Assembly: GCA_016193315.1 (NCBI GenBank)
Contig: JACPSJ010000001.1
Location: 791,478-855,477, forward strand
Direction: 5' to 3'
Origin: Candidatus Kerfeldbacteria bacterium
GTDB lineage: Bacteria; Patescibacteriota; Patescibacteriia; SBBC01; CAIJZX01
Length of the DNA stretch: 64,000 nucleotides
The translations under genes were made by a program, and so were the position numbers. The notes beneath the pieces were generated by a model that ran no database searches, was not told the DNA's origin, and saw only the letters and a list, made by a program, of their open reading frames with translations. Shown one piece after another: positions 2,911-62,300 of this stretch. The stretch's first letter is position 1. The number at the start of each line of letters is the position of its first letter.

Positions 2911-5900
2911 TTACGGGCTCCAATTTACGATAATATCGTCCACCCGTGGATAGTTTGAGCCCGAACTCGTACAATCATTTGAGCAGAGCTGTATTTTGTA
3001 CCGGAAGTAACGGTAATTATTGTGCTCGCTATACGATAATGTGACTGGTGTATTAGGGCTGGGGGCATTGTACCAGTCGGTTGAGACGCACGTCGGTCCA
3101 CTTGATACAGCGCAGAAGTTCCATGTACCAGCATCATCACAGGCGGGAGGATTGGTTTTCCCATTTGGACAGTTCGAAGTGGCCAGCTGGAATCGAACCG
3201 TGCCCGTTCCGGCTGCTCCCTGCCACATGACGCTGTTGTACGCCGCCCCGTCGGTCACTTGGGTATCAAAGACGGCTGATGTCAACGTCCCGTAGATCGT
3301 GCCCCCCGGACACGCATTGAAGGTCCAGCTCCCCTGATTTGTGCCAGGAACGTTCGTACCGCCGTTCACCGTGATCGGTACCGTGGCATTCATGTACGAC
3401 ACTGTGACGTCATAGAGTGTGAATGTTCCTGTTCCAGAGATCGAACGGGCCGGTTGCCCAGTGTCCGTCGTTGTCAACGTAATGTCATCGGAATCTGAGC
3501 ATCCATCGCTGTTTCCTCCGACGTCGAGCGTGAGGAGACCGCCACTGGCGACATCGAAGATGCCGCCGAGCATGATGTCGCCAATGGAGGTATTTGCCCA
3601 CTTGCCGTTCGCTCCGATCGTGACGGCGTTCGGCGAACCGTCGACCCTGATGTCTCCCGCTCCCTGCTGCAACTCACCCTGTGTGATGTTGAGGATGCCG
3701 TTCACGCGCAGTTCACTACCGATACCGACGCTCACCGCAGTCGTCGGTTGTGCTTTGCTGATAGTAACGGATGCGAAATCACTGGTGGAACACGAATCGG
3801 CATCGCCGCAGCCTGTGTTGAGCACCGTGGGGGTGGCGCCATCAAACGTAAGAGTCGCGGTACCTTCGTTGAACGTTCCGCTGTTAAACCAGTTCTCGCC
3901 AACGGTCAAGGATGCGGTGGGAGGAGCTGTCAACGTCGATCCATTTCCGATGACGACGTCACCATCGACGTCGACCGCCGTGTTGTTTGTCGCCGCTGTC
4001 ACAGTCACGGGATTCGCTCCACCGGCTGTAAGATCGGAAATTGTCCTGACCGTTCCCGTATCGAACGTGTAGGTTGGATTTCCGCTCGTCGGTCGCAACT
4101 CGAGGTTGTAATACGTTGTGGCGGTGATGTTTGTTGCCGTCGTGCCCGTGTAACGTATGGTTGAACTTGATGGGGTGAACACTTCGCCAGCACCGATGTT
4201 GAAAGGCTGGCCGCTTCCGGAGAGGGTGATGGTGTATGAAGAAGCATTGAACGTGTTCGTACCGCTTGACTGGTTAATCCAGAGCTTGCTTTGGACGGTG
4301 AAGTTTTGGGTGACATTTATGGTTGATGATTCGTCTGCTTTACCGATGTGCAGATTGCCGAACGTTGAGGCTCCTGAACCCCTGATGCTGCTTGGGGCGC
4401 CGGTGAGAGTCGTAACCCTATTCGCGTTCTGAGTTAGCGTGCCAAACGTCACGATTTCGGTGCCAGCAGTAAGATCGTAGTCGTTCAGGGCAAGCGTTCC
4501 AAGGGGGTCAGCGATTGTGACGCCGTCGAGCGCGGCCAGCACCGCCCCGCCCTGCCAGCTCTCAATTTGGCTCGTTGGCGCCGCACCGTTTCCGAACACG
4601 ACGATACCCGGTAAACCTGAAGCTATCGATGAATCAGTCGTTTGGAATTTGAGCTCGTTGTTGATATATAACTTCAGCGTGATGCCGATAACTTCAAGTT
4701 TTATTGTGTCACCAACTGTGGCGGCCGGTATTGTGTCGCCAGGTCCGGGATCGAGCGTCTGGTAAGCGCCACCTAACCATCGGTATACATCCGTCGGACC
4801 AGCGGTGGTATCTGTTGTATAGCAGTATCGATCTAAACCATCGCTGCTTACACGCACACAGACCTGCGCTTCGTTTCCTGGAGAAGCTGCCGCGATGACT
4901 GCCTCTGAATACTGATCAGCACCGACCGGGGATGCCCACGTGGCTGTATTATCTCCAGCCAGCGCGCCACCGAGATCCGAGCTGCTGTAAATCTGCGGGT
5001 CGCCCTGCACATTGTCCGTCCAGCCGGTGCCGAGTCCCGGTCCCGCCCTCTCGAAATCGTCCTGGGATGCGGTCAGGGAGTAGGTTCCGCCGCTGCCCGT
5101 CCAAAGATGGGAGTACGTAGTTGGCGCAACCGTTGCGCCCGTTGCATGGGAGTAGACGACCGTCGAGAAAACCGAATCGAAAACGCCCGGCGTGGTTAAG
5201 GAACCGTCAATAACGAACGGCGTTCCATTTCCTTCAATGGTCAGCACGTACGTATCGGCATCGAGCGTTCCGTCAACTTCGAGTGCAAAGGTGGTGACAT
5301 TGCCGTTGAGCGTGTAGGTATTTCCGGCCCTGATGTACAATTCCTCGCGCGCTGACGAGCCGTTATTATCAACAATCAGGTTGTTGCTTACATCAACGTC
5401 GTGGAACACGTCCGCATCCGGTGATACCGAGTCGTCATATGAACCGAGATTCGAACTGGAGAGCGACTGATTGTCATCACTCCCGATCGTCAGGTGTTCT
5501 TTGTACAAAGTAACGCCGGTGATATCCCCTGAACCGTCGTATTTCGTCACCGCAACCGCCCGATCGGTCGTCAAACCGGTCGAGATATCAATGAAGACGG
5601 TGACGACCGCTCCGCTTGCGGGTGCCGGAACGCTAGCGATGCTCCAGCTTCCTGCGACCGTTGGTTGGTTTTGGGATTGCAGCGTGTCATTGACAGCGAC
5701 GGCAATGGTCCCCACGTCTGCACAGGCAGTCGTTTGATCAAATGCGTTGCACGTTCCGGAGATATTCATGGTAGGTGGTGCTGCCGGCACGTACTCAACG
5801 AGCAGCCACATGGTTGTAACAGCAAGGATCGATCCACCGCGGGTCAGACGGACACCGATTTGTGTATTGTCAAGAACGCTCGGCGTCCAGGCAGAGGACG

Positions 5901-8900
5901 TGAATGGACGGTCGTACGCGGTAATGCTGTACAAACTCGGAATTGAGGTGTCGTTTGTCACCCACGCCGTTGAGGTAATGGCTTCAGTATCGCCTTCAAT
6001 GGCCGGTGCATTGGCACTGTCTTTAAGTCGGACAACGAGATCGGCTTGCGTGGAAGTCGTATTCGTGAACCGAATTCCGACCTGGGTCAGATTCACGAGT
6101 GCTCCGGCTGGTATCACCCCCGCAGTGTCTGTAACGTTTACATCGGCAGTTGCGTTGAGACTTGAGGCAGCCATGTAATGGCCACCAGTTCCGTCATTCG
6201 GAGTAATCTCGCTGGTACAGTCCCAGTTTGCCGTACATCCACCCTGATTGGTCCACTGTGAAAAATCTCCTGGTGGTGCATTGGGTCGTAGGTGGACAAC
6301 GCTGCCCGGCCCGGGGTAGCCGTTCTGCGTGGCACCGATCCCCTTGTTCACCGCGACGTCGTCGATGTACCAGTCACCGCCCTGCCCTCCATTAAACCCC
6401 GTGTTGCCGCCAACAGCAAGGTTCATTACACCATTGGCAATGTTCCGCGTTGAGCTCGTTGCAAAAACGGTGCCGTCGATCCGCGCTTCGACAATGTCGG
6501 TTGATCCCGATCCACGGGTGTCTAACTTCATCTCGATAAAGTACCACCTGTTGGTTGAGAGCACGCCCGAGGTGCCAATTGTTCCAACCTGGTCCCAGAG
6601 ATCGAGCAATCCAGTGGGTCTGATGGTAATTCCGGCTTGCCACGTTCCGCTGGAATCCTGAAAGTGCATGATCATACTGTCCTGCAAGCCGGTTGGAGGT
6701 GAGACAACGTAGAGGTACATCCGGGCGTAAAACGGTCCGTCATTATTCGCCGCCTCAAAATCATGTCCGATTCCCTTACGATCGAGTAAGGTTAATCCGT
6801 TGATCCGCATCGACGCGGCACCGGAGTGTTTCGTTGTGGTGTTGATGAGCGAGATGCCGTAGACTGTCTGGAACTCCACGCCGCTGGTCTCCGACTGCAG
6901 CTCGAACCCGGACGTCCACAGCCGTCCGCCCTCGGCCGGCACGTACTCTACCACGAGCCAGAGCGTGGTGACGAAGGTGTCCTCTGATGATGTAATGTCT
7001 CGAAGGCCGATCCGAGCGCTGTCGATGTCAGTCTTGGTTATCGGGTCTCCGTCCGCGGAGCCTGACTGATTAAAGAGGGTCAGCCGATAATTCTTCGGGT
7101 TGCTGACTGCGTTCGTCGTCCAGCCGGGAACGCTTTCGCCTGGACTGATGTATTCTTCTAAAGCATTCGTCCCTGGGATATTGATCCGAAGACCATACTG
7201 GGTGAGCGGGGTATCACCGTGAGAGTAACGAACGCCAACCTGCGCGAGCTTCACCTGATCGCCGTCGACGATACTCCACGTCGATGCATTTTGGACATCC
7301 ACCGTAATAATATCGCCTGTCGTGCACTCAGCAGAGTCAAGCTCATCATCGATCGGCGTCACCTCGTTGATAATGTCCCAGGCTGTGCTGCCGCCAGTGC
7401 AGGTATTCGAGACGTTGCCGTTCGGGAGCAGGTGGACGACCTTCCCCTCGCCCGGCCAATTCTGGTCATTGCCGCCGCTGTCGTCATTGATCGCGATGTC
7501 GTCAAAGTACATATCGCCCGTAACGCCGGTCGTGTAGTAGCCGAAGTAGAGATCGAGTGCTCCGCTGGTAAAATCTTGGTCAAGCCGAGACGCGAAAGAT
7601 GCGCCGTCAAGCCTGGCTTCAAGTTCGTCGTTGAGACCGGCGCCGTCAGTCGAGTCGAATCTCATCTCAAGCCGATACCACGTGTTGAGCAAGAGCGGCG
7701 ACGAAGATCCGATCAGAATGCCATCTTCTTCATTCCGAAGATCAAGGGTCAGGTTAGTGTTCAGTCGAATACTCGCCTTAGTGCTTGGCGCTGAATTGAC
7801 AAATGCCACAATGAGGGTTTGGGCTGAAGGAGCAGTGGTAATCCGAATGAATGTCCGGACGTAGATGTCGTCGGGGAGATTCGCCGCCGCGTAGCGATAG
7901 CGAATGTTTTCAACGGCAGCCGAGCTGGTTACTTGGGTTCGCAACGACGCCGCGCCTGATCTGACATAGCTGGGGCTGGTGTTGATCGCCGGTAATCCGT
8001 TGGTCGCGGTAATCTCCATGCCCGCAGACAGGCTCTGCAGCTCAAACCCGATGGTTGTCAGCCGACTTCCCGAGGCCGACCCGCCGACCGAGTCCAAGGC
8101 AACCTGCCACGGCCGTGACTCGCTGAACTCTCCCAGCGCGAGCGGACCGAGGAGGTACAGGGCCGGGGCAATGTCCGGAAAATCAATGGTGTACTCGAAC
8201 TCGTGCGTTTCGCCCGTTCTCCAGTCGACGTTCCAGGCAATTTCCTGCTCAAGATCGCTCACTGGTTGCACGGCACCTTCGTCAGACACCGATTTCAGTA
8301 TGAAGTCGGACGGAACACGTTCTCGAACGGTTCCGCGATAATTGCTGTTGGCTGTGATCGTCAGCTTCACGTTGTAATCAACCACCGGGAAGACGCGGGT
8401 GGGGAAGGTGGTGCGCTCGATATCGAAGGGAACCGTGTCGCGCACCTCAAAGAAGTCGTCAATTGACCGCGTTCCGTTGATGTTTGTGGCCGTGACCCGG
8501 AGCCGGTAAATTCCGCTTTGTCCGGCGCGGTACGAGGCGGCGTAGTCGGGGTTGATGGTGACGCCCTTGTCAACGCACTCGGGGTCCGGCCGAATGGTTC
8601 CATCCGATGTGGAGAAACGTTGGTTCCGACCTGCGGGGTCTGTGACGACCAGTTCGACGCCCGCGCTACACTGGGTGTGTCCGGTATCATCCAGTACGGT
8701 CATGCCGATCTCGGTGGTGGTGTCCGGCCGGATGATGGAGCGGCGGACGTTGACGCCGATCACCCCCCAGAAGAATGTTCTGTTCACAACCATGGTCTTG
8801 CCGTTCGGTGCGCGAAACTGAACGCGGGCGGTGTAGCGGCCGGGACGCAGGCCGGCGGTGGAAAACCGGAGAACGGTATCTGCATCGCGACCGCGTCGAC

Positions 8901-9219
8901 GAACTTCTTCTGTGAACGCCTGCTGCAAGATACTGTCATCTGGACTGACGAGCGTCACGTCATCGATCTTCCAGGGTCCGGTCGACGCTCTCAGCAACCG
9001 CGGCTGTAGTGCGTTCGATGAAATGGCGATCGTCGGTTGCTCGGTCACTCGGAATGCGCGATCTTCTGATCGGGCTGACGATCTGATTTGTTGCGTACTC
9101 GATGTCTGTCGGAAAACGACAACCGTCACTATGGCTGCCAGTGCTAGGAGCGTCGCTCCGACTGCGCCGGGGCTGATGATGGAAACATGTGACGATTGCT
9201 TTGTCCTTGATCGTCTCAT
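2911..9219 (-). CDS. Giant (~2,100 aa) membrane-anchored surface protein with two LamG/concanavalin-A-like lectin repeat modules and a Thr/Gly/Asn-rich C-terminal beta-rich region; putative pilus-associated adhesin
   Basis: Single long ORF (track 2911..9330). The likely start MRRSRTK at 9219 overlaps the stop of the upstream minor pilin. N-terminal TM anchor (AVGATLLALAAIVTVVVF). Two ~395-aa internal repeats (about 6933..8118 and 5778..6933), each with a LamG_3-like core (NTWYRLEMRFDSTDG..YFDDIAIND and NRWYFIEMKLDTRGSG..YIDDVAVNK) and ending in WLVVEYVP / WLLVEYVP. It is embedded between pilin genes. Confidence 0.75.
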   Translation of the reverse strand: MRRSRTKQSSHVSIISPGAVGATLLALAAIVTVVVFRQTSSTQQIRSSARSEDRAFRVTEQPTIAISSNALQPRLLRASTGPWKIDDVTLVSPDDSILQQAFTEEVRRRGRDADTVLRFSTAGLRPGRYTARVQFRAPNGKTMVVNRTFFWGVIGVNVRRSIIRPDTTTEIGMTVLDDTGHTQCSAGVELVVTDPAGRNQRFSTSDGTIRPDPECVDKGVTINPDYAASYRAGQSGIYRLRVTATNINGTRSIDDFFEVRDTVPFDIERTTFPTRVFPVVDYNVKLTITANSNYRGTVRERVPSDFILKSVSDEGAVQPVSDLEQEIAWNVDWRTGETHEFEYTIDFPDIAPALYLLGPLALGEFSESRPWQVALDSVGGSASGSRLTTIGFELQSLSAGMEITATNGLPAINTSPSYVRSGAASLRTQVTSSAAVENIRYRYAAANLPDDIYVRTFIRITTAPSAQTLIVAFVNSAPSTKASIRLNTNLTLDLRNEEDGILIGSSSPLLLNTWYRLEMRFDSTDGAGLNDELEARLDGASFASRLDQDFTSGALDLYFGYYTTGVTGDMYFDDIAINDDSGGNDQNWPGEGKVVHLLPNGNVSNTCTGGSTAWDIINEVTPIDDELDSAECTTGDIITVDVQNASTWSIVDGDQVKLAQVGVRYSHGDTPLTQYGLRINIPGTNALEEYISPGESVPGWTTNAVSNPKNYRLTLFNQSGSADGDPITKTDIDSARIGLRDITSSEDTFVTTLWLVVEYVPAEGGRLWTSGFELQSETSGVEFQTVYGISLINTTTKHSGAASMRINGLTLLDRKGIGHDFEAANNDGPFYARMYLYVVSPPTGLQDSMIMHFQDSSGTWQAGITIRPTGLLDLWDQVGTIGTSGVLSTNRWYFIEMKLDTRGSGSTDIVEARIDGTVFATSSTRNIANGVMNLAVGGNTGFNGGQGGDWYIDDVAVNKGIGATQNGYPGPGSVVHLRPNAPPGDFSQWTNQGGCTANWDCTSEITPNDGTGGHYMAASSLNATADVNVTDTAGVIPAGALVNLTQVGIRFTNTTSTQADLVVRLKDSANAPAIEGDTEAITSTAWVTNDTSIPSLYSITAYDRPFTSSAWTPSVLDNTQIGVRLTRGGSILAVTTMWLLVEYVPAAPPTMNISGTCNAFDQTTACADVGTIAVAVNDTLQSQNQPTVAGSWSIASVPAPASGAVVTVFIDISTGLTTDRAVAVTKYDGSGDITGVTLYKEHLTIGSDDNQSLSSSNLGSYDDSVSPDADVFHDVDVSNNLIVDNNGSSAREELYIRAGNTYTLNGNVTTFALEVDGTLDADTYVLTIEGNGTPFVIDGSLTTPGVFDSVFSTVVYSHATGATVAPTTYSHLWTGSGGTYSLTASQDDFERAGPGLGTGWTDNVQGDPQIYSSSDLGGALAGDNTATWASPVGADQYSEAVIAAASPGNEAQVCVRVSSDGLDRYCYTTDTTAGPTDVYRWLGGAYQTLDPGPGDTIPAATVGDTIKLEVIGITLKLYINNELKFQTTDSSIASGLPGIVVFGNGAAPTSQIESWQGGAVLAALDGVTIADPLGTLALNDYDLTAGTEIVTFGTLTQNANRVTTLTGAPSSIRGSGASTFGNLHIGKADESSTINVTQNFTVQSKLWINQSSGTNTFNASSYTITLSGSGQPFNIGAGEVFTPSSSTIRYTGTTATNITATTYYNLELRPTSGNPTYTFDTGTVRTISDLTAGGANPVTVTAATNNTAVDVDGDVVIGNGSTLTAPPTASLTVGENWFNSGTFNEGTATLTFDGATPTVLNTGCGDADSCSTSDFASVTISKAQPTTAVSVGIGSELRVNGILNITQGELQQGAGDIRVDGSPNAVTIGANGKWANTSIGDIMLGGIFDVASGGLLTLDVGGNSDGCSDSDDITLTTTDTGQPARSISGTGTFTLYDVTVSYMNATVPITVNGGTNVPGTNQGSWTFNACPGGTIYGTLTSAVFDTQVTDGAAYNSVMWQGAAGTGTVRFQLATSNCPNGKTNPPACDDAGTWNFCAVSSGPTCVSTDWYNAPSPNTPVTLSYSEHNNYRYFRYKIQLCSNDCTSSGSNYPRVDDIIVNWSP

Positions 9220-9926
9220 GGTGTGATCGTGATGCTCCCGGGAGTGGTAGTGTAGTCGATGTTTGTCCGCGTGTCGAAGCTGCCGCTGTTGATGTCGCGC
9301 AGGTTTGCACCATCCTCCTGCGTCGTCCATGTAGATTCGACACCCGCTCTATTGGGCCAACGCGTAACGTAGTCACTCGCGCTCAGCGCTGCCGCCCCAG
9401 GCCAGCTCACCGCGACAGAAATCTTTTGCGTTGACGGATCGTGTCGATTCGACGGCGGCGTGCACGTGACTCCCGTGCCATTGGAGTTGGTGACACCAAC
9501 AATTGCCCCGCTACCGTCTCGACACACGTTCTGCACCCGAAAAGAACGCGTGTAATCGACGCCGTTGATGGAAAGTATTTCAGACCCTTCATTCGACGGA
9601 TGAGAGATTACCCACGCTCCCGAGGGGTAGGTCGGTGGCAGTTGACCAGTATTCTTTATGGGATGATATGGAACATCCTTCTGACGATCAAAGATGTTTA
9701 TCCAGTTTTCGGTTGCGGCCGCATGCACCGCTTCAAAGGTTTCTTGCATCAGACCGTTGGCGACGTTTCTCTCGGTCGCAATCTTGTTCCCCCGCAGGCT
9801 GACGACTACAATCTGACCGCCCGCGCCAAGAATCACCATGGCCACGGCGATGGTAATGAGTATTTCTAGCAGGAGCTGACCGTTCCGGTGTCGATGGTCA
9901 TGCCTGATGGAGGTGCGTATGGCCAC
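9216..9926 (-). CDS. Minor pilin/pseudopilin (PilW/PilV-like)
   Basis: Prepilin-type N-terminus NG|QLLLEILITIAVAMVILG with Glu+5; 236 aa; stop overlaps the start of the giant gene. Confidence 0.55.
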   Translation of the reverse strand: MAIRTSIRHDHRHRNGQLLLEILITIAVAMVILGAGGQIVVVSLRGNKIATERNVANGLMQETFEAVHAAATENWINIFDRQKDVPYHPIKNTGQLPPTYPSGAWVISHPSNEGSEILSINGVDYTRSFRVQNVCRDGSGAIVGVTNSNGTGVTCTPPSNRHDPSTQKISVAVSWPGAAALSASDYVTRWPNRAGVESTWTTQEDGANLRDINSGSFDTRTNIDYTTTPGSITITP

Positions 9927-43435: not shown

Positions 43436-43528
43436 TCTCGCCCATTATCATGGCGACGAAATTCATACTTGACAAGCCGCTTGGTCAAACCAGATGGTCA
43501 TCGATGGCGAAACTTATTTCGGCCGTGT

Positions 43529-48011: not shown

Positions 48012-48472
48012 GACTGAACGGTGATCGCTTCCTCTCGCTGTCGCCAGCGCTCGGCCGCCGCCGGCGTGTGGTGGTCAAAACCGCAGAGATGCATCAGGCC
48101 ATGGACCAGCAGGGAACGAAAATGCTGGGCGTAGGTCCGCCGGTATCGACGGTACTCACGACGCACCATCGCCGGACACAACACGATTTCACCCCACTGG
48201 CGTTCCGCCGGCGACGGGCGAAAAACATCGGGCGTAGACAGTCGCCAACTCAACACGTTGGTTGGCCGATCGATGCCCCGCCAGCGTCGATTGAGCCGGC
48301 GGCTGGCAGTGGGCTTCACGACGGCGATCGAGAGTTCGCCAGCCGGGCTGGCCAAGCGGCGACGGACCGTCTGCGCCCAGCGGCGGATAGCGGTCGTTGG
48401 GAGACCGGCCGAAACCTGACAATGAATGGCAACCGGGTATCGCCCAGGGCGGTTAGCTCGTGGCCGCGACAA
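48008..48472 (-). CDS. ybeY: rRNA maturation endoribonuclease YbeY
   Basis: Zinc-binding motif HGLMHLCGFDHH; the start is uncertain because the upstream gene overlaps by 20 nt. Confidence 0.8.
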   Translation of the reverse strand: MSRPRANRPGRYPVAIHCQVSAGLPTTAIRRWAQTVRRRLASPAGELSIAVVKPTASRRLNRRWRGIDRPTNVLSWRLSTPDVFRPSPAERQWGEIVLCPAMVRREYRRYRRTYAQHFRSLLVHGLMHLCGFDHHTPAAAERWRQREEAITVQS

Positions 48473-49634
48473 GCTTGAAGCTCCGAACCATCATCTCAAA
48501 GGTAGTCCAGTAGTTGACTTGGGTCAACGAACCAGTGGTGTACTGGAGACTGTACACCTTCGTGTCGCGGAAGAGGTAGACGGCGCTTTCGTCTTCGCTA
48601 TAGATCCCTTCGAAGCCACCGAAGGTAATGGTCTTCAGACTGTTGACGTTAGCGTTTGGGTTAGCGCTTTGATACCAAGCCTCGGGGGTTTGACGCGTGG
48701 CATTGTCATGAATCCGCACTTGGAAGAACTCTCCCGTGGCTTGCGACGGGTTGATGAGGATGCCACCGGACTGATCCTGAACGCCAGTCCAGGTGCTGGG
48801 GATGAGCAGGCTGTAGGTATTGGTACCGTTCAGCTGCCGCTTGACGAGGGTCGAATCTTCGAGGCGACCGGAACCTTTGGGGTTGTAGCCATTATAGACC
48901 TCGCCGATCACGGTGCCATCGGACCGTTCCTGCTTACCGTCGATGAAACTGTCCTGATCGCTGTCCGGCTTGCTCGAGTCGGTGCCGTAGACGACCTCTT
49001 CGATATCGGTCAAGCCGTCACGATCACCGTCAGCCGACGATGGCAGCGGCGTCAAGCGCGGGGTGTTGGTGTTGGCATTGCCGTTAGCATTGGCATTCGT
49101 GTTCGCATTTGCGGCGTTAGTGTTGGCGTTGGCGTTGGCGTTGGCATTCCCGTTGACGTTGAGGTTGCCGTTCGTCGCACCGTTGACATTACCATTGGCG
49201 TTTCCATTGGCATTCCCGTTGATGTTTCCATTGGCCGGGCTATTGGTGTTGAAGTTCTGGTTTCGGTTTTGATTGACGACCGAGCCGTTGGTGTTATCAT
49301 TGGCCGGCTGGTTAAACACGTTTTGGAAAACGTACAGGCCCGCTACCCCCAGACCGGCCAAGACCAGAACCACGATGAGGATGATCAGGAGGCGTTTTGT
49401 TTTCCGTCCGCCGCCGGTGGGGCCAGGGGTGACCGACCGGAACTTTTCGGGCATGGTAAAAACTTTGGGCTGAGCCGCGCTGGGCTGGCTGGGTGGGGTC
49501 ATTGGCGAAGGTGGTGGGGGGGGAGGTGGCGGGTTGAAGGTCGGCGGAGGCGGTGGTGGGGGGGTGAAACTTGGTGGCGGTGGCGTCATTGGTCCCACTG
49601 GCGGGACAGTCGGGTTGTCAAACATAGGCTCCAA
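48453..49634 (-). CDS. Membrane-anchored protein with a Pro-rich cytoplasmic N-terminus, an NG/NA low-complexity linker, an Asp-rich Ca-binding (thrombospondin type 3-like) motif, and a C-terminal globular domain
   Basis: N-terminal PPPPPPP tracts, one TM helix (LLIILIVVLVLAGLGVAGLYVF), (NG/NA)n repeats, then DGDRDGLTDIEEV..DSSKPDSDQDSF. Confidence 0.5.
   Translation of the reverse strand: MEPMFDNPTVPPVGPMTPPPPSFTPPPPPPPTFNPPPPPPPPSPMTPPSQPSAAQPKVFTMPEKFRSVTPGPTGGGRKTKRLLIILIVVLVLAGLGVAGLYVFQNVFNQPANDNTNGSVVNQNRNQNFNTNSPANGNINGNANGNANGNVNGATNGNLNVNGNANANANANTNAANANTNANANGNANTNTPRLTPLPSSADGDRDGLTDIEEVVYGTDSSKPDSDQDSFIDGKQERSDGTVIGEVYNGYNPKGSGRLEDSTLVKRQLNGTNTYSLLIPSTWTGVQDQSGGILINPSQATGEFFQVRIHDNATRQTPEAWYQSANPNANVNSLKTITFGGFEGIYSEDESAVYLFRDTKVYSLQYTTGSLTQVNYWTTFEMMVRSFKLVAATS
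49060..49260 (-). repeat. Tandem GTTGGC/ATTGGC-type hexanucleotide repeats encoding an (Asn-Ala/Asn-Gly)n linker
   Basis: Directly visible repeat gttggcgttggcgttggcgttggcattcccgttgacgttgaggttgcc...; within the CDS 48453..49634. Confidence 0.6.
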
Positions 49635-49637
49635 AGT

Positions 49638-50150
49638 TTATTGGTTTGATAGTTGTTGAATGGCTTCGTTCAAATTGCGGAGACTGCCGCTGCCAAGTGG
49701 GTTATCACCACGGGCAATTTCTTGACCGTCGGTCCCTCCGTCCCCGTCGGAGTCCTGAAGACGAGGGTTGGTCTGGTAGACGCTGGTTTCCTCGCGGTCG
49801 CTCAAGCCGTCGCCATCGCTGTCCGCCAAATCCGGATCTGTTCCCAAACGTTGTTCTTCGTCGTCCGCCAGCCCGTCACCGTCGCCGTCGTTGAGTATGA
49901 CTACTGGAAATCGTTCAAAGGTTGGGCGGGTGGTTCGATTCGTGGCGTTTGTTTGGTCGGTCGATGCGGCCGGGCGATCATTGACCTCCGTGGATGGCCG
50001 CCGTGACCACCATTGCTGAACTAGCAGTCCGCCCAGACCAACCAGGATCGCTACCCCCAGTATAAAGAATATTCTGGACCTTGCCAACCAGGACCTGCCC
50101 TCCCCGCCTGGGGACGGTGGCGTGGGTAGAGATAGCGACGGGTCAGGCAT
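49638..50150 (-). CDS. Small membrane-anchored protein with thrombospondin-type-3-like Asp-rich Ca-binding repeats
   Basis: 170 aa; TM helix IFFILGVAILVGLGGLLV; repeats DGDGDGLADDEE, DSDGDGLSDREE and DSDGDGGTDGQE. Confidence 0.5.
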   Translation of the reverse strand: MPDPSLSLPTPPSPGGEGRSWLARSRIFFILGVAILVGLGGLLVQQWWSRRPSTEVNDRPAASTDQTNATNRTTRPTFERFPVVILNDGDGDGLADDEEQRLGTDPDLADSDGDGLSDREETSVYQTNPRLQDSDGDGGTDGQEIARGDNPLGSGSLRNLNEAIQQLSNQ

Positions 50151-50152
50151 GG

Positions 50153-53100
50153 CTAGGGCCGGAGGGCATAATTAAAGCAGGAGCAGTTGCTGCCAGGAAT
50201 GCCGCTGCACGGGTTCGACCCCGGGGCATTGATAAAGTTGCCGGGACGGGTGTACTGCATGTTGGCGTAGAGAGTGTACGTGCGGCCGTCGGATTGGTAA
50301 GCATAAATGGTTGAACCGGACGGGCATTGAAAGGCCTTCCGCAGCTCCGACCAACAGCTGTCGGCTTCATAGCGGTCGTCAACCGAGACCTCCGGCGGCT
50401 TGCATTCCGGAATGAAAACATTGGCCGGATCTTCGGGCAGCGCCCGTCCCAGGGCGTTCCCCAGCGTCTGTTGCCAGGATGGCCAGCGCGAGGTCGACAT
50501 CCCGATCAGGAACGACCCGGCGGTTAGCTTCGGATATTCGTCGTTCTCCTCGTGGTAGTCTTTCAGGGCGGCCTTTATTGCTGCCAGGTCTTGAACGCGC
50601 CTGGTGTCGTCGCGGAGAATCGGGCGCCAACCGGCTCCCGGCAAGTTGGTGTTAAATACCACGGAGTTGATCATCTGATTGAAAATGTTCTTCGTTTCCG
50701 GTGCGGCCGCGTTGGAGTTGTAGTCGATAACGAAGATGAAGCCTTCGAGCGGTCCGCCGTCAGTGATATCGGTCACCCCGATGTAGGCGGTGGTGCCAGT
50801 CCGAAACGCCGGGTAGCCGCCGATGGTGGTCGAACTGCCACCGCTGTCGAGCGGAAAACGTTGACGAAACCACTCGTACGGCGGGAGCAAGTCCGGGTTG
50901 CGATAGATAAGCAACCCGATGACGTCACGGCTGGTGGCCGATTCTTTAAAGAACATGCTCTTGACCCGATTAGGGTCGGCGGCATTCTGACCTTCGATGA
51001 CGCCGAGCCGACCATTTGAACCGGTGTAAATGAAATCGGGGAGCAGCGGCCCGCCGCTTTTCCCCCGGCAGTAGGACATGGTGAAATGGTAATCCGGACA
51101 CGGTGCCCGGCTGTCGCAATTGCCGACGGCGTCGGTAAAGCCGCTCTGGTCGGCATCGACGTAGGCCCATGGGTTCTCACAGAAATCAACAATAGCATCG
51201 GCGTCACCGCAAATCTTTTTACCCTCGTCGCTGCCAACGCTGTCCTCCGTCACATTGGCGCAGGCCTGAATCGTCGTCGCACCATTGGCGCGGGCGGTAA
51301 CGTTGGCAAACGTGAAGTTCCGGTCATCGGGCCCGGCCATCGATGCGCTGGCCACGCCCTCATTGCTGCTCTTCCAGCCCCACTTCCAGGCGTAGACGCC
51401 GGGCACATTGCTGACTCCCTCACCGCGCTCCGATAGGGCCCCGGCCCAAAAAAAATGGACTTCATCCTGGGCGGAAAATCGCCAAAAGTTCGGGCTCACT
51501 TGGATGTCGGCCACCCGACAAATGCTATCGCCGGTTGTATAGGTTATCGGACTGGTGATCGCGCTCGTGGTAACGTTGGCCCGAACGCCGTTCGTCCCGC
51601 GGATGAGCGTATCCCCACCGTAAGTGATTTTTTCGACTTTGATATCATCGCACCAGGTCTTGGCGCCCCACCAAGCGTAGCAGTCAATATGCAATTTCGA
51701 GGCCGGGAAAGCGCGATTCGTTTTGGCCACCACGACTTCAATGAATTTCCATCCACCCGAGGGACCGGAGAACACTCCTGGGGCGGCGTCAACGAGATCG
51801 AAACCGCAGTTATTGAAATCGTGACAGACGACAATGAGCCCATTTTTTTTGCCTGGCGTCGACCCCTCAACTTTGACCCAGCCGGTGACGCGGTAGAGCA
51901 CATCAAAGTCTTCCGTCCCATCAATCGTTTGCGCCTCCCATGATTGATCCCCGGCCGGGCAACCGCTGCAGTCCGCAAAGCCGGAAAATCCGGTGTGGTC
52001 GGGTGGAACGTCTCGGGACTGCTTCCCGTTTCGGTTACCCCAGATGGTCGGGACGCCATTGACATCGGCCTCCTCAAAGCTGGGATTGCCGAACGCAAGG
52101 ACCGTTGTCGTGCTGCGGGTCGTCAGGTGGAACGTTTGGAGCGCGCTCGGGGACAGGATGCCGGGGCTGTAGAGTAACCGCCCACTCGAACCGTCATTGA
52201 GAACACGGGATGAGCCGAACACAACGCGACCCTTATCGAGGTACTGAACCGTCTCGCCGGTGACTGAGGCTTCATCGATCGGCTGGTCGAACGTCACCTC
52301 GAGGCGGGTGTTGCGACAGATGCCCGTCGCCCCGTCGGCCGGACTGGTACCACTGATCGTTGGCCGGGGCCGGCAGCAGAAGTCGCGAGCGCAGCCATAA
52401 TCTTCGGTGGAGTATTCCGGCGCGCAGTGGTCGTCGATGGCGCAGCGCTTGGTGGTGCAGCTCAACGCGCCGGGATCGCTGACTTCGAACGGCCAGGGGT
52501 TTGAGCCGACGTCTTCGTTCTTCACTCGTACCTCGCTCGGACCGACGGCCGCGTCGGTCGGGATCTGGGTGCCAATCTTGGTGTCTTCCCAGCTAGCGTA
52601 GGTTGACATGATCGCCAGGGAGCCCGAGCCAAGGTGAATAATATTGGCCTGGTCATGATCGGTCCGCTTCGCCGGTTCGTCGTCGCCGAAGCGGGCGCCG
52701 CTCGCGGTCACGCCGGTCAAGATCGGGCCCCGCGTTGGGTTGAGGCGACAAAGGCCAGGCGTGAGGGCGTCACTGTTGACCGTGAAATCCGGCCCGTCAG
52801 CCTGCCGGTCGTCGAAACGGTTCACCCTGACCGGGCCGCTGACGGCGTCGTCGCCGCCATCGGGCGTGCTGCGGTTCGGGACCTCGCGAACGATCCGCTC
52901 GTTGGTCCACGTTGCCGCCGGTGAGAGACAAATATCAGAATCGGGGGCAATTCCTTCGCGATCGTCGGCATCACCGGCGGCCCCGAGGAAGATGACCTTG
53001 CTCTTGGCGCCGTCGTAGCCACCGAACCAGCAGCCTTTGACCGTTGTCCAGGTACCAATCGGGCCGGCGGTGGGGTCAAGTCCGTTGACCACCGGCGTGC

Positions 53101-56100
53101 ATCGATTATCCTCGCAGGTGGATCCTGGACAAGCTTCCCCGAAGCGGTTCGTCCGGCAGTCATCGCTCGATCGACACGAGGTCGGATCATAAAGAATGCG
53201 CACCGCGCGGGAGGTTTTTCCCTCCGTAGCCACGGTCGTGTCCGTTGATCCGCCCGCCACCGGATCCGCCGGATTAAACGCTAGCACGCTCCGACCAGAG
53301 CGGCCACTCAGTTCGGCGGCATCGCTATTATTGGTATCCCAGGCATAAGTCAAGCTGCCGGCATCCAGCAGGCGGCATTCCGCATCCAGCGGCTGGGCGC
53401 TCATGTTGACACCATACGGCGTCTCCCGGAAAGTGTAGCTGATCGGACTGGCCGCCACCGCGGTGCCAAAGGCGACCGAGGAATTGATGACTACGCTGGC
53501 GATCGGGCACGGTGCGCCGTCGGCCTTGGTGGTAAACTGCCATACATACGGACCGGCCAGTGGGATGTCGGTTGCGCTTTTGACCCCGGTGGTAATCGAG
53601 GCTTGGTAGTTCGTGGAGGCGGACAGGCCGCCGGTCGGATGGAGGCTGCAGCCTGGATCGCATTTCTCCAAGTAGATGTTGCCGGTAGTGAAGGTGGTGG
53701 TATTCATGTCGACCGTGAAACGGGCCGTGACGTCGCTGTTCAAACAGACGTCGACATCTGACCGGCGGGGGCTCGGGCTCGGCAAGATGCCACCCTCAAG
53801 ATCGCAACTTGCTTCTTCCGCCACTCGCGGCGTCGTGTCTCCTGGTCCGGCCGGAGCGGTGACTGAGTAGGGCAAAGCATTACTCACGGCACCATCGCCT
53901 CGCCGGACGGTCAGGAGCGCGCTCAGCGGCGCCGGCGTAGTGGCTGGGATCTGAGCATTTCGAATCTGTTCTTCTGACCAGGTCGCCGCGCTGACGTTAC
54001 CGAGTTTCGGTGGTGGCGCCGGCGAGAATAAGACGGCACTGTTGCCGGGGTCGTAGCTGCCAAAACGTTTACCGCCCAAGGTGGTGTAAGACTCCGGGGG
54101 ACCGCTATTGGGAGTAACGGACAGCAAGCACACCCCGTCGCTACCATCGCCGGCCTGGAGAAAGAGGTTTTCCTCGTTGCTTTCCAACGGACCGATCGGA
54201 TCATCATACTTGACGGTCACCTTGTATGGATGCGTTTTGTCGAACTCACCGGCGTCGAACGGCGGGTCCGGCGTTGTCACCTCGGACACGATAACGTTAT
54301 TCTGCCAGCCCAGCACCGGCTGATCGGTCCCCTCGAGTTGAACAATGTCGCCGGGGTTCTGCCCATCGCTCTCTCGCACGGCCGCTCCCGGCGGCTTCTT
54401 CTCGAAGTAATTGCCGACCACGGAGACGCAAGCTCCAGTTTGTCCGCTACTGGGGTCTAGGCGATCAATGTATGGCGGCTGGACGCAGCTTTCGGCCGTA
54501 CCGGTGGTAAAGCTCCAGGTGCGGCTGAGTTTCGTGCCTTCACGATCGATGACCAGATCGGTATTGACCGTGGCCGTATGTGGCGTCTCCGGGCTAAGCA
54601 GCAGCGTCTCTGGCACAAAGCCGTACTTCGTACAACTCCGTTCTGGATGTTCTGAATCGAGCGGGTCGAGCACCCGAAAGCCGCGGCCCGGATTCGGGGA
54701 CAAGGTCCCGTCGCGAACCAGGCTGCCACCGCCAGGTTCGCAGTCTGGTTCGCCGATCTTCCACATCGAAGTGGCGAACTTGACGAACACTTCGCTGGCA
54801 GGACAGATGGTCCCGGCCAAGGGGTAAACGAATTTAATGCCAGCCACGACATCGTTCGTTTCAAACACCCATTCGTACGGTGTCGCCTGTTTCGTGCCGC
54901 ACAGGGAATAGAAATCCTTAGCCACAATCTTGTACCACGTAAACGGCTCGAGGCGGACGCCGTCTTTGAGCTGCAGCCAGGCGCCGGTGCCGAACGGCTC
55001 GACCGTGTAATCACTAGACGGGAGCGGCGTCGGATCAACCGTCCCGCCGGTACCATCATCCGGATCCGGCGCCGTGGTAAACTTGAATAGTTGAATATTG
55101 TCATTCGTCACCAGGTTCGTGTCAATGGCGTTGTTGAATTCAACCTTGAACGGATATCGCTCGCGGTCGACGTTGCGGTCCGGTTTGCCGACCCCGGTGA
55201 GGTAGGTCGAGCTTGGCAGCGTTGACGATGCTTCTAGCGCTGGACCGGACACATCGGTGCCCACGCTGAAGGTCCAGTAAATCAAGTTGTTTGTCTCGTC
55301 CACCTTGCAATTTTCGCCTGGCACAGCATCCCCCTCGATCGGTTCACCAGCGCTGTTGCGCTGACACTTCTGCAGCGTTCGGCCCGGATCAGTCGTGTCT
55401 TTGATGGCGGTGGGGGCGTCGCGGGCCGGAACGATCAACCGGTAGGTGGTGTTGGTGGCGAACCAGCGGTTGTCCGGGCTGGCTTCATCCTCGCTGAACG
55501 AACGATGGTAAAAAGTGATAGCTTTGCCCTTGGCTACCCACTCGGCTTTGGTGTCGCCAGCCGCGCCAGTCGGCCGGTCGCCGGAGAAAACCTGGGGGCT
55601 GATCTTGCTGCCAGCTGGCAGACTAAACTCGCCGTCTTCGCAAATGTCATCGCCTACGCCGTCGCCTCTGACATCACTACACTCCAAAATCACCAGATTG
55701 GGATCGCCATCGGCCAAGTCGTCCTCCACCGCCGCTCTGACGGTGTCGATATCCAGATCGTGGTTGAAGTACAAGGCCGCGGCGCTCGAGCGCGGCACGT
55801 TGGTGTCGTAATCCGGACGGACGGCACAGGTGGTGACGCCGGTCAGGTCGAACGTCCGTTCGCCCGACCCCAGACAGCCGAAACCGACGCAGCCACCGCC
55901 GCGATCGCTATTGCTGCTGGTCGTCACCCGCTGGAACGTCCGGACGACAAAGAAGACGATCGCCCAGGCCAGGAGAATAATCACTAGGCCGATGAGCGCC
56001 TGCAGAATGACTTCTTTCGCCTTCTCCACCCGCTGCTCGTTGCCGCCGGCGGTCAGCCACAAGTAGCCACCATAGATGAGATAGGCCACCGCCACCAGGG

Positions 56101-56320
56101 TCACCAAGCCGAGCAGGATGCGGATGAGATTGATGATGACCTGCCGCAGGTCGGCGCTGCCCAAACCGATCCGGCTGCCGATCGACTCGACGCTAAAGGT
56201 GGTCGCCGTTTGGGCCGAGACCGTGCCGCTGGCAAAGGCCCACCAGCCGAGCAGCAGGCCGGCCACGAGCACCCCAGTCACGAGCAGGGCGCGTCGGTTC
56301 ATCCCAGGCAAGGCGGACAT
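50153..56320 (-). CDS. Giant (2,055 aa) Cys-rich surface protein with an N-terminal TrbC/VirB2-like (T4SS-pilin-like) two-helix domain and multiple Ig/IPT-like extracellular domains
   Basis: After a signal peptide, the segment VIINLIRILLGLVTLVAVAYLIYGGYLWLTAGGNEQRVEKAKEVILQALIGLVIILLAWAIVFFVV has the helix-loop(GN..AK)-helix layout of conjugative pilins. About 1,900 aa follow, with many Cys pairs and repeated IPT-like starts (DRLDPSSGQTGAC.., VNGLDPTAGPIG..). The C-terminal ~150 aa are Cys-paired and globular. Confidence 0.7.
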   Translation of the reverse strand: MSALPGMNRRALLVTGVLVAGLLLGWWAFASGTVSAQTATTFSVESIGSRIGLGSADLRQVIINLIRILLGLVTLVAVAYLIYGGYLWLTAGGNEQRVEKAKEVILQALIGLVIILLAWAIVFFVVRTFQRVTTSSNSDRGGGCVGFGCLGSGERTFDLTGVTTCAVRPDYDTNVPRSSAAALYFNHDLDIDTVRAAVEDDLADGDPNLVILECSDVRGDGVGDDICEDGEFSLPAGSKISPQVFSGDRPTGAAGDTKAEWVAKGKAITFYHRSFSEDEASPDNRWFATNTTYRLIVPARDAPTAIKDTTDPGRTLQKCQRNSAGEPIEGDAVPGENCKVDETNNLIYWTFSVGTDVSGPALEASSTLPSSTYLTGVGKPDRNVDRERYPFKVEFNNAIDTNLVTNDNIQLFKFTTAPDPDDGTGGTVDPTPLPSSDYTVEPFGTGAWLQLKDGVRLEPFTWYKIVAKDFYSLCGTKQATPYEWVFETNDVVAGIKFVYPLAGTICPASEVFVKFATSMWKIGEPDCEPGGGSLVRDGTLSPNPGRGFRVLDPLDSEHPERSCTKYGFVPETLLLSPETPHTATVNTDLVIDREGTKLSRTWSFTTGTAESCVQPPYIDRLDPSSGQTGACVSVVGNYFEKKPPGAAVRESDGQNPGDIVQLEGTDQPVLGWQNNVIVSEVTTPDPPFDAGEFDKTHPYKVTVKYDDPIGPLESNEENLFLQAGDGSDGVCLLSVTPNSGPPESYTTLGGKRFGSYDPGNSAVLFSPAPPPKLGNVSAATWSEEQIRNAQIPATTPAPLSALLTVRRGDGAVSNALPYSVTAPAGPGDTTPRVAEEASCDLEGGILPSPSPRRSDVDVCLNSDVTARFTVDMNTTTFTTGNIYLEKCDPGCSLHPTGGLSASTNYQASITTGVKSATDIPLAGPYVWQFTTKADGAPCPIASVVINSSVAFGTAVAASPISYTFRETPYGVNMSAQPLDAECRLLDAGSLTYAWDTNNSDAAELSGRSGRSVLAFNPADPVAGGSTDTTVATEGKTSRAVRILYDPTSCRSSDDCRTNRFGEACPGSTCEDNRCTPVVNGLDPTAGPIGTWTTVKGCWFGGYDGAKSKVIFLGAAGDADDREGIAPDSDICLSPAATWTNERIVREVPNRSTPDGGDDAVSGPVRVNRFDDRQADGPDFTVNSDALTPGLCRLNPTRGPILTGVTASGARFGDDEPAKRTDHDQANIIHLGSGSLAIMSTYASWEDTKIGTQIPTDAAVGPSEVRVKNEDVGSNPWPFEVSDPGALSCTTKRCAIDDHCAPEYSTEDYGCARDFCCRPRPTISGTSPADGATGICRNTRLEVTFDQPIDEASVTGETVQYLDKGRVVFGSSRVLNDGSSGRLLYSPGILSPSALQTFHLTTRSTTTVLAFGNPSFEEADVNGVPTIWGNRNGKQSRDVPPDHTGFSGFADCSGCPAGDQSWEAQTIDGTEDFDVLYRVTGWVKVEGSTPGKKNGLIVVCHDFNNCGFDLVDAAPGVFSGPSGGWKFIEVVVAKTNRAFPASKLHIDCYAWWGAKTWCDDIKVEKITYGGDTLIRGTNGVRANVTTSAITSPITYTTGDSICRVADIQVSPNFWRFSAQDEVHFFWAGALSERGEGVSNVPGVYAWKWGWKSSNEGVASASMAGPDDRNFTFANVTARANGATTIQACANVTEDSVGSDEGKKICGDADAIVDFCENPWAYVDADQSGFTDAVGNCDSRAPCPDYHFTMSYCRGKSGGPLLPDFIYTGSNGRLGVIEGQNAADPNRVKSMFFKESATSRDVIGLLIYRNPDLLPPYEWFRQRFPLDSGGSSTTIGGYPAFRTGTTAYIGVTDITDGGPLEGFIFVIDYNSNAAAPETKNIFNQMINSVVFNTNLPGAGWRPILRDDTRRVQDLAAIKAALKDYHEENDEYPKLTAGSFLIGMSTSRWPSWQQTLGNALGRALPEDPANVFIPECKPPEVSVDDRYEADSCWSELRKAFQCPSGSTIYAYQSDGRTYTLYANMQYTRPGNFINAPGSNPCSGIPGSNCSCFNYALRP

Positions 56321-60863: not shown

Positions 60864-62264
60864 TCAGGAAGCGAGCGGCGGCGGGCTAGGCGCGGTCGGT
60901 GGCGGGCTGAACGGGCCGGTGGCCGCGTCGTGGCCGAGATTCTGATGAATCAGCTTTTCGGCCCGGCGAATTTCTTCCATTTCTCGTTGCAAGGCGGCGG
61001 CCTTCTTCCGCGCGTCCCGTTCCAGCGTCTCCAAGTCGCGGCGGAAGGTGGTTCGAATCCGCACCCGTCGCAAGACCCAGTAGCCGGTACTCGCCGCCAC
61101 CAGAACGCCCAGCCCGATAATCATGGCGTTGGCAACGGCAGGATTATTGAGTAAGGGGATCCGCGCCAGGAACGGTAAGGCGCCGGCGACGACCCGTAAT
61201 GTGACTGCCCCCTCAGTGGCATTACCGGCGCGGTCAACGGCTCGGACAATGAACGTGTATTTGCCGGCTGGATGCGGCTGAATGGTGTAGGGGCTGATGG
61301 CCTCGACGAACAGTGTGTCCCCGCCCCGACCATCGCCTGGTACCTCCTTGACTTCGTAATGATCCAGCCCGGAGGCGGCGTCACTGGTCAGGAAGCTGAG
61401 GAGAACCGTGTCTTCCTTGGTCGCCACCTCGTGATCGAGATGGGGAGAAAATTCGGCCGGCGGGCTAGTATCGATCCGGACGGTGTAGGTCGTCACCCCG
61501 CCCCAGATTTCGGCCTCGGCCCGGAGATGGAAGTACCAAATGCCGTCGGACTTCGTCTTGACCGTCGTCGCCGTGGAGGTGGTATCGACTTCTTCATCAG
61601 GTATGCCTTTCGGGTTTTGGTCGAAAGAAAAACTGTAACCGGTGATGCCGGACAGACCTTCCCAGGTGAACTGAATGCTTGGGTTATTGTACCACTGGTT
61701 GCTGTCCGGGTGGGATGGGCTGTTGACCACCGGGCCGGCTGGCGGCGGGTTCTTGAGGGTGTATTCGGCGCTGCTGGTGGCGGTCAGAATATTAGTCCCC
61801 TCGGCGTCATTGCGCAGCACCTGCGACGTCGGGGCGTACTTGATAATGGCCTTGCCAGCCGACTTGACACGGAAGGTAACGGTGCTGACAACGCCGGCGT
61901 TGGTTCGGATGCCGGGGTTCGGCAGGCCGCCTTGAAAACTGATGGTGCCGTCAGTGTTTGAGTAGGTCGGTGAGGTTACCCAGACGGTCACAAAGGAGGT
62001 GCTGGCCACCGGATTAACCACCTGGAGCTTGTCCGGCGGGAACAAAACGTCGGCGCTGATGGCGTTGACCGCATCACCGCCGGTATCGAGCACGAACGAC
62101 ACGTCGACCAGACTGCCGACTTCAAAGATACCAGAGCTGGGGGAGACTTTCAGGCTGGCCGCCGACTCTTGCGCCCACAAACGTACTGGCACCAGCCACC
62201 AGGCCAGGCCGAACACGGAGATGAACGAAATGGTGGCCCATGATCTTCTATCCATTGCCGTCAC
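60864..62264 (-). CDS. Membrane-anchored surface protein with an N-terminal cohesin-like domain, Ig/FN3-like domains, a C-terminal TM helix and a charged cytoplasmic tail
   Basis: Signal peptide; SLKVSPSSGIFEVGSLVDVSFVLDTGGDAVNAISADVLFPPDKLQVVN fits the cohesin beta-sandwich pattern; C-terminal TM AMIIGLGVLVAASTGYWVL then RRVRIRTTFRRDLE... The cohesin call is moderate. Confidence 0.5.
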   Translation of the reverse strand: MTAMDRRSWATISFISVFGLAWWLVPVRLWAQESAASLKVSPSSGIFEVGSLVDVSFVLDTGGDAVNAISADVLFPPDKLQVVNPVASTSFVTVWVTSPTYSNTDGTISFQGGLPNPGIRTNAGVVSTVTFRVKSAGKAIIKYAPTSQVLRNDAEGTNILTATSSAEYTLKNPPPAGPVVNSPSHPDSNQWYNNPSIQFTWEGLSGITGYSFSFDQNPKGIPDEEVDTTSTATTVKTKSDGIWYFHLRAEAEIWGGVTTYTVRIDTSPPAEFSPHLDHEVATKEDTVLLSFLTSDAASGLDHYEVKEVPGDGRGGDTLFVEAISPYTIQPHPAGKYTFIVRAVDRAGNATEGAVTLRVVAGALPFLARIPLLNNPAVANAMIIGLGVLVAASTGYWVLRRVRIRTTFRRDLETLERDARKKAAALQREMEEIRRAEKLIHQNLGHDAATGPFSPPPTAPSPPPLAS

Positions 62265-62300
62265 GGTACGAACGACTGTCAGTATACCAGGATTCCGTTC

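Follow-up and report, generated by a model that had tools for sequence, protein, structure and literature searches.

The VirB2 and TraA pilins of type IV secretion systems (T4SSs) lose a leader by cleavage and lie in the membrane with both termini outside and the loop inside. Among pilins of a different class, the modular type IV pilins, such as PilB and PilC of Streptococcus sanguinis, carry C-terminal functional modules that have been grafted onto the pilin. VirB2-like pilins have been described in the Patescibacteria (Candidate Phyla Radiation, CPR), where a 2025 survey by Quinonero-Coronel et al. (PMC12102498) found them to be widespread; they are reported from 1,948 VirB4-containing assemblies in arrays of 2 to 11 genes, with PF18895 among the profiles used. 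In Southlakia epibionticum, a cultivated Saccharibacterium, the VirB2-like pilin array is essential and lies inside a T4SS cluster (Wang et al. 2023, PMC10633639; PMC12857230). The means by which these ultrasmall bacteria hold on to a host, and the function of their unusual, essential T4SS-like pilin arrays, form an open field. The locus considered here lies in a 64,000-nucleotide stretch of a Candidatus Kerfeldbacteria genome (assembly GCA_016193315.1, contig JACPSJ010000001.1, positions 791,478 to 855,477; hereafter the window), and it encodes a protein of 2,055 amino acids, hereafter the giant. We conclude that the giant is a modular VirB2-type (PF18895) pilin hairpin carrying a stalk of Ig-like domains that is tipped by a conserved cassette (Table 1).

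The N-terminal pilin module

A T4SS-pilin-like N terminus at residues ~60-130 had been proposed in an earlier reading of the DNA letters alone (the original prediction), and profile searches bear this out. PF18895 (T4SS_pilin) matches residues 61-123; the score is 37.2 bits for the full-length giant and 41.6 bits when residues 1-150 are searched, against a gathering cutoff of 26.6 bits, and the match covers profile positions 7-69 of 71. The segment is therefore more than a generic signal-anchor. The stretch quoted in that earlier reading, VTLVAVAYLIYGGYLWLTAGGNEQRVEKAKEVILQALIGLVIILLAWAIVFFVV, is found at residues ~73-126. The NCBIfam Mycoplasma ICE pilin-like model NF045849 scores 26.8 bits, under its cutoff of 40, and PF04956 (TrbC/VirB2) has no match to the giant at E <= 1. 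When the profile of the module was compared using hhalign with Agrobacterium tumefaciens VirB2, whose sequence had beforehand been checked against annotated Ti plasmids, the match was weak and in register (E 0.0017, probability 15%), and the F-pilin TraA gave no match to the same profile.

Much closer to the module are the free-standing Patescibacteria pilins. With residues 1-140 as the query, 52 clusters were recovered, mostly of 106-160 aa (a few reach 231 aa) and all with PF18895, at 34-66% identity to the module of the giant; the closest are at 55-66%, and several come from Kerfeldbacteria. Against the 115-130-aa stand-alone Kerfeldbacteria pilins the alignment, at 55-66% identity, extends from end to end, through the signal peptide, the A-x-A|Q motif, the mature segment TATTFSVESVGxQIGLGxADLK, helix 1, the loop TAGGNE(E/Q)(K/R)VxKAK, helix 2 and a short tail. 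The stand-alone pilins reach their C terminus ~9 residues past helix 2, and this is the point at which the giant runs on. Most of the small pilins and most of the giants have an N-x-T motif directly after helix 2, which raises the possibility of pilin glycosylation; the motif is absent from the window protein (RTFQRVTTS).

The predicted structure of the N terminus has the two-helix form that the original prediction had suggested. In an AlphaFold2 model of residues 1-480, computed with a 29-sequence alignment and with a mean predicted local distance difference test (pLDDT) score of 79, a helix at 9-31 is followed by disorder at 32-54, a helical hairpin formed by residues 55-90 and 95-132, a disordered linker at 131-152 and then confident beta domains. 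Hydropathy gives a matching picture, with three hydrophobic segments at residues 10-35 (the signal peptide), 58-91 and 98-133, all within the first 133 residues of the protein. Across 45 family members the pilin module is the best-conserved 50-residue block, with a mean identity of 68%, compared with 18-55% elsewhere.

The ectodomain and its terminal cassette

The remainder of the protein had been described as an Ig/IPT-like, disulfide-rich ectodomain, and this description stands for both the domains and the cysteines. After the disordered linker comes a stalk of ~1,560 aa made of Ig-like domains (Big_5, IPT/TIG and SbsC-like). Big_5 (PF13205) scores 75.4 bits in the whole giant against a cutoff of 23.6, and scans of separate segments give Big_5 at 37.3 and 34.9 bits, IPT/TIG (PF01833) at 22.0 bits against a cutoff of 20.9, and weak PKD and Big_2 signals. 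All 54 cysteines of the giant (2.6% of its residues, compared with 0.9-1.4% in the four other large open reading frames (ORFs) of the window) come after residue 143. Of these, 46 are kept in at least 80% of the 45 family members. This conservation fits structural disulfides formed outside the cell, of which the giant could have ~27. An MdbA-like oxidoreductase and VKOR are reported to be enriched in CPR genomes (bioRxiv 10.1101/335083). Judging from its ~16-18 beta domains, the ectodomain would form a rod ~55-70 nm in length.

About half of the 45 members contain an insert of ~150 aa in the stalk (residues 1401-1550 of the reference sequence in the family alignment). The assignment of this insert as CBM4_9 was considered and rejected, as there is no Pfam match to it in the giant and PF02018 is found in one homolog only.

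The C-terminal end of the giant is a cassette whose conservation, at ~50% mean identity, is second only to that of the pilin module. AlphaFold2 models residues 1590-2055 with confidence (pLDDT 88.5, predicted template modeling score 0.87) as an Ig-like domain, an alpha/beta domain and a 29-residue helix (residues 309-337 of the modeled fragment) followed by the strands of a small sheet. The alpha/beta domain has neither a Pfam nor a PDB sequence match, and it weakly resembles the C-terminal domain of the 393-aa protein encoded downstream. Fold searches for the head are swamped by the Ig domain and return only a generic Ig-fold likeness to SbsC, SbsB and Sap; the same searches match S-layer proteins, adhesins, glycosidase accessory domains and phage proteins alike.

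The original prediction also held that the C-terminal domain is pilin-like, and of this the weak likeness remains. Seven of 13 family members weakly match PF08334 (T2SSG), with a best E of 3.7e-4, and the window protein itself reaches 12.8 bits against a cutoff of 21; the head matches PDB GspG sequences at E 1.1-1.5; and hhalign places its motif RDTKRxQDLxxIxxxLxxY on the alpha1-C segment of the type IV pilin encoded in the window (E 0.002). The stronger identification, that the head is a true type IV pilin, is not borne out. The GspG likeness is sub-threshold, and the prepilin cleavage/methylation motif PF07963 has no match in the giant, whose head sits at the C terminus. In addition, the same succession of alpha/beta domain, Cys-rich spacer and GspG-like head is found in other Patescibacteria as proteins of ~300 aa (P0118, P0120, P0126, P0131 and P0135) that have no Pfam annotation and are secreted through ordinary Sec signal peptides. 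Because it also exists as a free-standing Sec-secreted protein, the cassette is a module in its own right rather than a true pilin; it is extracellular, specific to the CPR and as yet uncharacterised.

Recurrence of the fusion

The Cys-rich protein of 2,055 aa that had been read from the DNA is present as an ORF with an ATG start, in a window of 58.6% G+C. Its database counterpart, NCBI MBI2984848.1, is a 100% match of 2,049 aa that begins at Met7, comes from the 857,372-bp contig of a Candidatus Kerfeldbacteria metagenome-assembled genome, and is annotated only as 'Ig-like domain-containing protein'. A search with the full-length protein recovered 58 clusters, and 57 of them have PF18895, with lengths of 1.3-3.5 thousand residues (nearly all 1.9-3.5 thousand). 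Nearly all of these 57 carry Big_5, and the distant ones add TIG, VWA, LamG and fn3 domains. As the 57 homologous clusters come from independent NCBI, JGI, ENA and Logan assemblies and share the architecture, a chance ORF can be ruled out. Members of the giant family are encoded at 17 loci among GTDB species representatives, and one complete Kerfeldbacteria chromosome has two adjacent paralogs that also start with the pilin module. The fusion is real and old, and it is vertically inherited in one chromosomal slot.

The claim that a pilin-like membrane module joined to a giant ectodomain is an undescribed architecture also holds for the T4SS and Patescibacteria literature searched, yet the architecture is recurrent in the sequence databases, where the family is annotated generically. 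Literature on modular pilins and T4SSs yielded general T4SS papers only and no such fusion, and PMC12102498 makes no mention of pilin fusions.

The module is found in other settings as well. In a profile search of 1.84 billion representative proteins, 78,997 clusters contained it at E <= 1e-3. The best 150 of these comprise 24 giants (1.27-3.1 thousand residues, each with one N-terminal module), 21 stand-alone pilins, 3 mid-sized proteins and 102 tandem proteins, in which one polypeptide strings together 2-13 PF18895 hairpins (4 in 364 aa, 6 in 555 aa and 13 in 1,775 aa, for example; among P0138-P0273, such as P0146, P0139 and P0147). These tandem chains rank high partly because summed scores favor them, and such 'polypilins' are not mentioned in the T4SS and Patescibacteria literature searched. 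The module is also fused to PG_binding_1 (396-418 aa), to Beta_helix (635 aa) and to Big_5 (600-700 aa), and the module-Big_5 fusions immediately precede distant giants within the one chromosomal slot named above.

Chromosomal context

The gene for the giant occupies a conserved position, in the order GT2, signal peptidase I, HisRS, HIT, (S21), YqeY, giant, small TSP3 protein, ~380-aa protein, YbeY, DAGK, FtsA, FtsZ, NrdR and RNR, and this order is held in the window and in relatives down to 29% identity (the contexts of five relatives were compared). The same slot also holds giants of 3,457 and 3,462 aa that share little with the window protein besides the pilin module.

Table 1. Coordinates and basis of the features discussed; positions are those of the window except in the last row, and residues are those of the giant.
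Feature	Position	Strand	Basis
Whole gene: modular pilin/giant surface protein, 2,055 aa	50153..56320	-	ORF, ATG start; stop codon 50153-50155
Predicted Sec-type signal peptide, residues 1-36 (n-region RR, hydrophobic core, VSA|QT motif)	56213..56320	-	Hydropathy 10-35; AlphaFold2 helix 9-31 then disorder; aligns with signal peptides of stand-alone pilins
VirB2-type pilin module, residues 37-135: mature N-segment TATTFSVESIGSRIGLGSADL, helix 1, loop TAGGNEQRVEKAKE, helix 2	55916..56212	-	PF18895, pilin alignment, AlphaFold2
Flexible linker, residues 136-152 (TSSNSDRGGGCVGFGC...), where stand-alone pilins end	55865..55915	-	AlphaFold2 pLDDT <50 for 131-152; pilin alignment
Stalk, residues 153-1713: Ig-like beta domains with conserved Cys	51182..55864	-	IPT/TIG ~616-694, Big_5 ~850-931 and 1319-1367, Ig ~1590-1713
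Optional insert, residues ~1407-1556	51653..52102	-	Alignment occupancy ~0.5
Conserved alpha/beta domain, residues 1714-1890, first half of terminal cassette	50651..51181	-	AlphaFold2 pLDDT ~90; 49-55% mean family identity
C-terminal head, residues 1891-2055: long helix RRVQDLAAIKAALKDYHEENDEYP and small beta sheet, 6 conserved Cys	50156..50650	-	AlphaFold2; weakly GspG/type IV pilin-head-like
170-aa membrane protein with TSP3 (Ca-binding) repeats, downstream partner	49638..50150	-	PF18884 43.8 bits; starts 2 nt past the stop of the giant, junction TAG-CC-ATG
393-aa membrane protein, second downstream partner: Pro-rich N terminus, transmembrane segment, Asn-rich spacer, TSP3 motif, C-terminal domain	48453..49634	-	ORF, Pfam, sequence comparison
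Other module fusions (related loci)	L001 8219-9475; L028 5899-7089, 7540-9447; L030 7898-9988; L032 8206-10014		

A small gene lies downstream of the giant in all relatives checked, and Pfam finds TSP3 in most of its products, with none in the 113-aa gene product of locus L004. The second downstream partner has orthologs of 367-391 aa at the same position in relatives. On the opposite strand to this gene, an ORF of 407 aa (48426-49649, +), rich in Gly, Val and Arg, is probably a spurious shadow ORF of the high G+C content. A scan for promoters and terminators found terminator-like sites to be no commoner than in shuffled sequence.

A few genes upstream of the giant are cohesin/dockerin-domain proteins (60864-63991, -), which recur at the matching place in locus L003 (220-5790) and also upstream of a stand-alone pilin array in locus L007 (624-2633), and these hint at a further surface-assembly system. 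Three DUF2079 paralogs (40362-45058) lie 5-10 kb downstream of the giant. The second protein of more than 2,000 aa that had been claimed for the window does exist (2911..9330, -; 2,139 aa); it has no Pfam domain, an N-terminal signal-anchor helix and a Cys-rich C-terminal end, and it lies within a type IV pilus cluster with prepilin-motif genes (2387-2974, 9939-10466 and 14277-15104), PilC (10484-11689), PilB (11692-13404) and a PilN-like gene (20-1120). This second giant may be a pilus-associated adhesin of the type IV system.

Relation to the stand-alone pilin arrays

No other pilin module turned up when all six frames of the window were searched with a hidden Markov model. In a related genome whose giant is 53% identical, an array of three small pilins and a 418-aa pilin-PG_binding_1 fusion lies ~180 kb from the giant. 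Two of those small pilins share 65.7% and 53% identity with the module of that giant, and only 37-39% with the remaining pilins of their array. Table S1 of PMC12102498 includes Kerfeldbacteria (class ABY1) assemblies, among them two with VirB4 given as 'Yes' and two with 'No'.

Four arrays, at loci L001, L007, L026 and L028, have partly shared surroundings. NTP_transferase and SBP_bac_1 genes come before the array in three of the four (L028 has neither), and genes for DUF2079 and a GT-C/GT87-type membrane glycosyltransferase come after it in three of the four (the exception being L026). Counted over five array contexts, four have DUF2079 with GT-C-type genes among their neighbors.

Proposed mechanism and alternative readings

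We propose that the giant, as a tip or sparse subunit, assembles with the small pilins in one lattice or by one pathway, and we hold this as a tentative reading that stands a little short of an even chance. A common pathway or lattice is proposed because the hairpin and mature N-segment are near-identical to those of the free pilins and track one stand-alone subfamily. The module is also the best-conserved part of the giant, which argues that it is more than a mere anchor, since an anchor would not need such conservation. By this proposal the Sec system would insert the giant and signal peptidase I would cut it at VSA|QT, leaving the hairpin embedded in the cytoplasmic membrane, its two ends facing outward and its charged loop facing inward. 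Applied to the giant, the VirB2/TraA topology would place everything after helix 2 outside the cell, in agreement with the distribution of the cysteines. The extension would then fold and oxidise outside into the rod described above, which would be long enough to span both wall and surface layer, so that a host cell would meet the terminal cassette. The giant would enter a VirB2-like filament, or a membrane pool of pilins, as a sparse or first-in (tip) subunit, and would in this way be more than a passive anchor.

Host-cell attachment is the most probable role of the giant, judging from its domain types. Diversification is confined to the ectodomains (LamG, VWA, TIG, fn3), with slot and pilin module unchanged, a pattern to be expected of proteins that touch a host. 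Two lineages were enriched in the >2.5 um size fraction, and Kerfeldbacteria are one of them; the authors of that study read this as strong host attachment (PMC7906910).

A number of observations weigh against shared assembly with the small pilins. Pfam scans of ~50 genes of the 64-kb window found no VirB4, VirB6, VirB3, VirD4 or relaxase; what they found was ComEC, housekeeping genes and the type IV pilus cluster with its PilB, PilC and prepilin genes. The neighbors of the giant are housekeeping and cell-division genes in all relatives checked, and there is no VirB4 among the genes around five giants in relatives. There is likewise no VirB4 within 10 kb of the stand-alone pilin arrays in five array contexts, so the link to a T4SS is unproven even for the stand-alone pilins. 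A profile search of PDB sequences with the pilin module found nothing, and fold searches with the hairpin found nothing specific. Pilins of this family are not known to have been seen as a pilus, and a load of 1,900 aa on a pilin would sterically allow only sparse or tip incorporation. The adhesin function, for its part, rests on domain types, with no binding domain of known specificity identified in the giant.

The same absence of T4SS linkage, together with the variety of fusions, brings close behind the reading that the hairpin is a pilin-derived membrane anchor, independent of any T4SS, for an envelope-spanning fiber or adhesin that never enters a filament; we consider this possible, if somewhat doubtful. 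It accords with the lack of T4SS genes both near the giant and near the related stand-alone arrays, and with the conserved synteny with housekeeping and division genes. The hairpin has been fused to many unrelated ectodomains (PG_binding_1, Beta_helix, Big_5, LamG and VWA) and concatenated 2-13 times in single polypeptides, which suggests a general-purpose membrane module, and the stalk could probably reach the surface from the membrane. However, the hairpin and the extracellular N-segment are the most conserved part of the protein, which is rare for simple anchors, and they track one subfamily of stand-alone pilins. The stand-alone members of 120 aa anchor nothing and so need another function, presumably polymerisation, and in Saccharibacteria the pilin family sits inside an essential T4SS cluster (PMC10633639).

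An improbable alternative is that the giant is a building block of a surface-layer-like structural coat, in which the hairpin would be the membrane tether and the TSP3 proteins calcium-dependent partners. It is a core syntenic gene beside the division cluster, Ca-binding TSP3 partners are encoded downstream in most loci, and periodic surface layers have been seen on ultrasmall groundwater cells (PMC7906910). Against this, an Ig fold is nothing specific, with fold searches matching adhesins, glycosidase accessory domains and phage proteins equally well; Pfam scans of the giant find no SLH domain or other S-layer anchoring or lattice-forming domain; and the composition of the ectodomain varies widely among relatives, which is unusual for a lattice protein. 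A protein of 2,055 aa with so many possible disulfides would also be costly as bulk coat for a genome of ~0.9 Mb.

The idea that a small pilin gene and a large surface-protein gene were joined through mis-assembly, a frameshift or a gene-calling error, which was considered since stand-alone pilins of nearly the same sequence exist and for which no support was found, is rejected as having almost no probability, given that the reading frame is single and unbroken in the window, that the fusion recurs in the 57 clusters, which stem from four data sources and independently made assemblies, one complete chromosome included, and that the linker at the junction is conserved, with Cys 144 and Cys 149 invariant.

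The proposal of shared assembly with the small pilins can be carried further. In Patescibacteria the PF18895 hairpin might be a general scaffold for surface display and polymerisation, whose stand-alone, concatenated and giant-fused forms co-assemble in one filament or membrane array, with the giant as the tip or host-recognition subunit that sets host specificity. We regard this wider scheme as unlikely, though if true the essential T4SS-like apparatus of Patescibacteria would have its 'missing adhesin' in the giant, which would also be the first modular pilin of the VirB2 class. The locus ties a pilin module to giant, fast-diversifying, disulfide-rich ectodomains at a conserved position in the core genome, and it makes the giants concrete candidates for attachment proteins of Kerfeldbacteria. 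Nature has here put to the test whether cargo can be borne by VirB2-type pilins, and the locus also raises the question whether genes annotated as 'T4SS pilin' in Patescibacteria always belong to a T4SS.

Comparison with known systems

The nearest described proteins are the stand-alone VirB2-like pilins of Patescibacteria (PF18895), which share with the giant the A-x-A|Q signal peptide, the mature N-segment, the two hydrophobic helices and the TAGGNE(E/Q)-K/R loop. The giant differs in the ~1,920 extra residues after helix 2, and it lacks the small size (~100-150 aa) and hairpin-only character of these pilins. Its gene also stands in a housekeeping slot by ybeY-dgkA-ftsA-ftsZ, not in a pilin array or a T4SS cluster.

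VirB2, TrbC (PF04956) and TraA appear analogous in layout, with a long leader and then a helical hairpin, and weak PF04956 matches are found in some close stand-alone relatives of the module. The giant itself has no PF04956 match and no adjacent VirB3, VirB4 or VirB6, and its C-terminal extension has no counterpart in those pilins. For the VirB5 tip protein and Enterococcus PrgB it is the proposed role that is alike, namely contact with the target cell on behalf of a T4SS-type surface structure, but both are separate, non-pilin proteins (PrgB is LPXTG-anchored) and no homology between them and the giant was detected. The Patescibacteria survey detected no PrgB-like adhesin (PMC12102498).

Giant Ig-repeat and S-layer proteins (SbsC, SbsB and Sap, and the LigB/Big-domain adhesins) are rooted by an SLH, LPXTG or type I secretion system retention module, whereas the giant has a pilin hairpin at this place. 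Compared with these proteins the giant also has a very high density of conserved disulfides and a group-specific cassette of an alpha/beta domain and a GspG-like head. In design principle, the giant may be likened to the modular type IV pilins, in which a pilin polymerisation module carries an adhesive module for display on the filament or at its tip. The two belong to unrelated classes, the one with a single N-terminal helix processed by prepilin peptidase and the other with a Sec-processed VirB2-type hairpin, and the load on the giant is 10-20 times larger than that on the modular type IV pilins.

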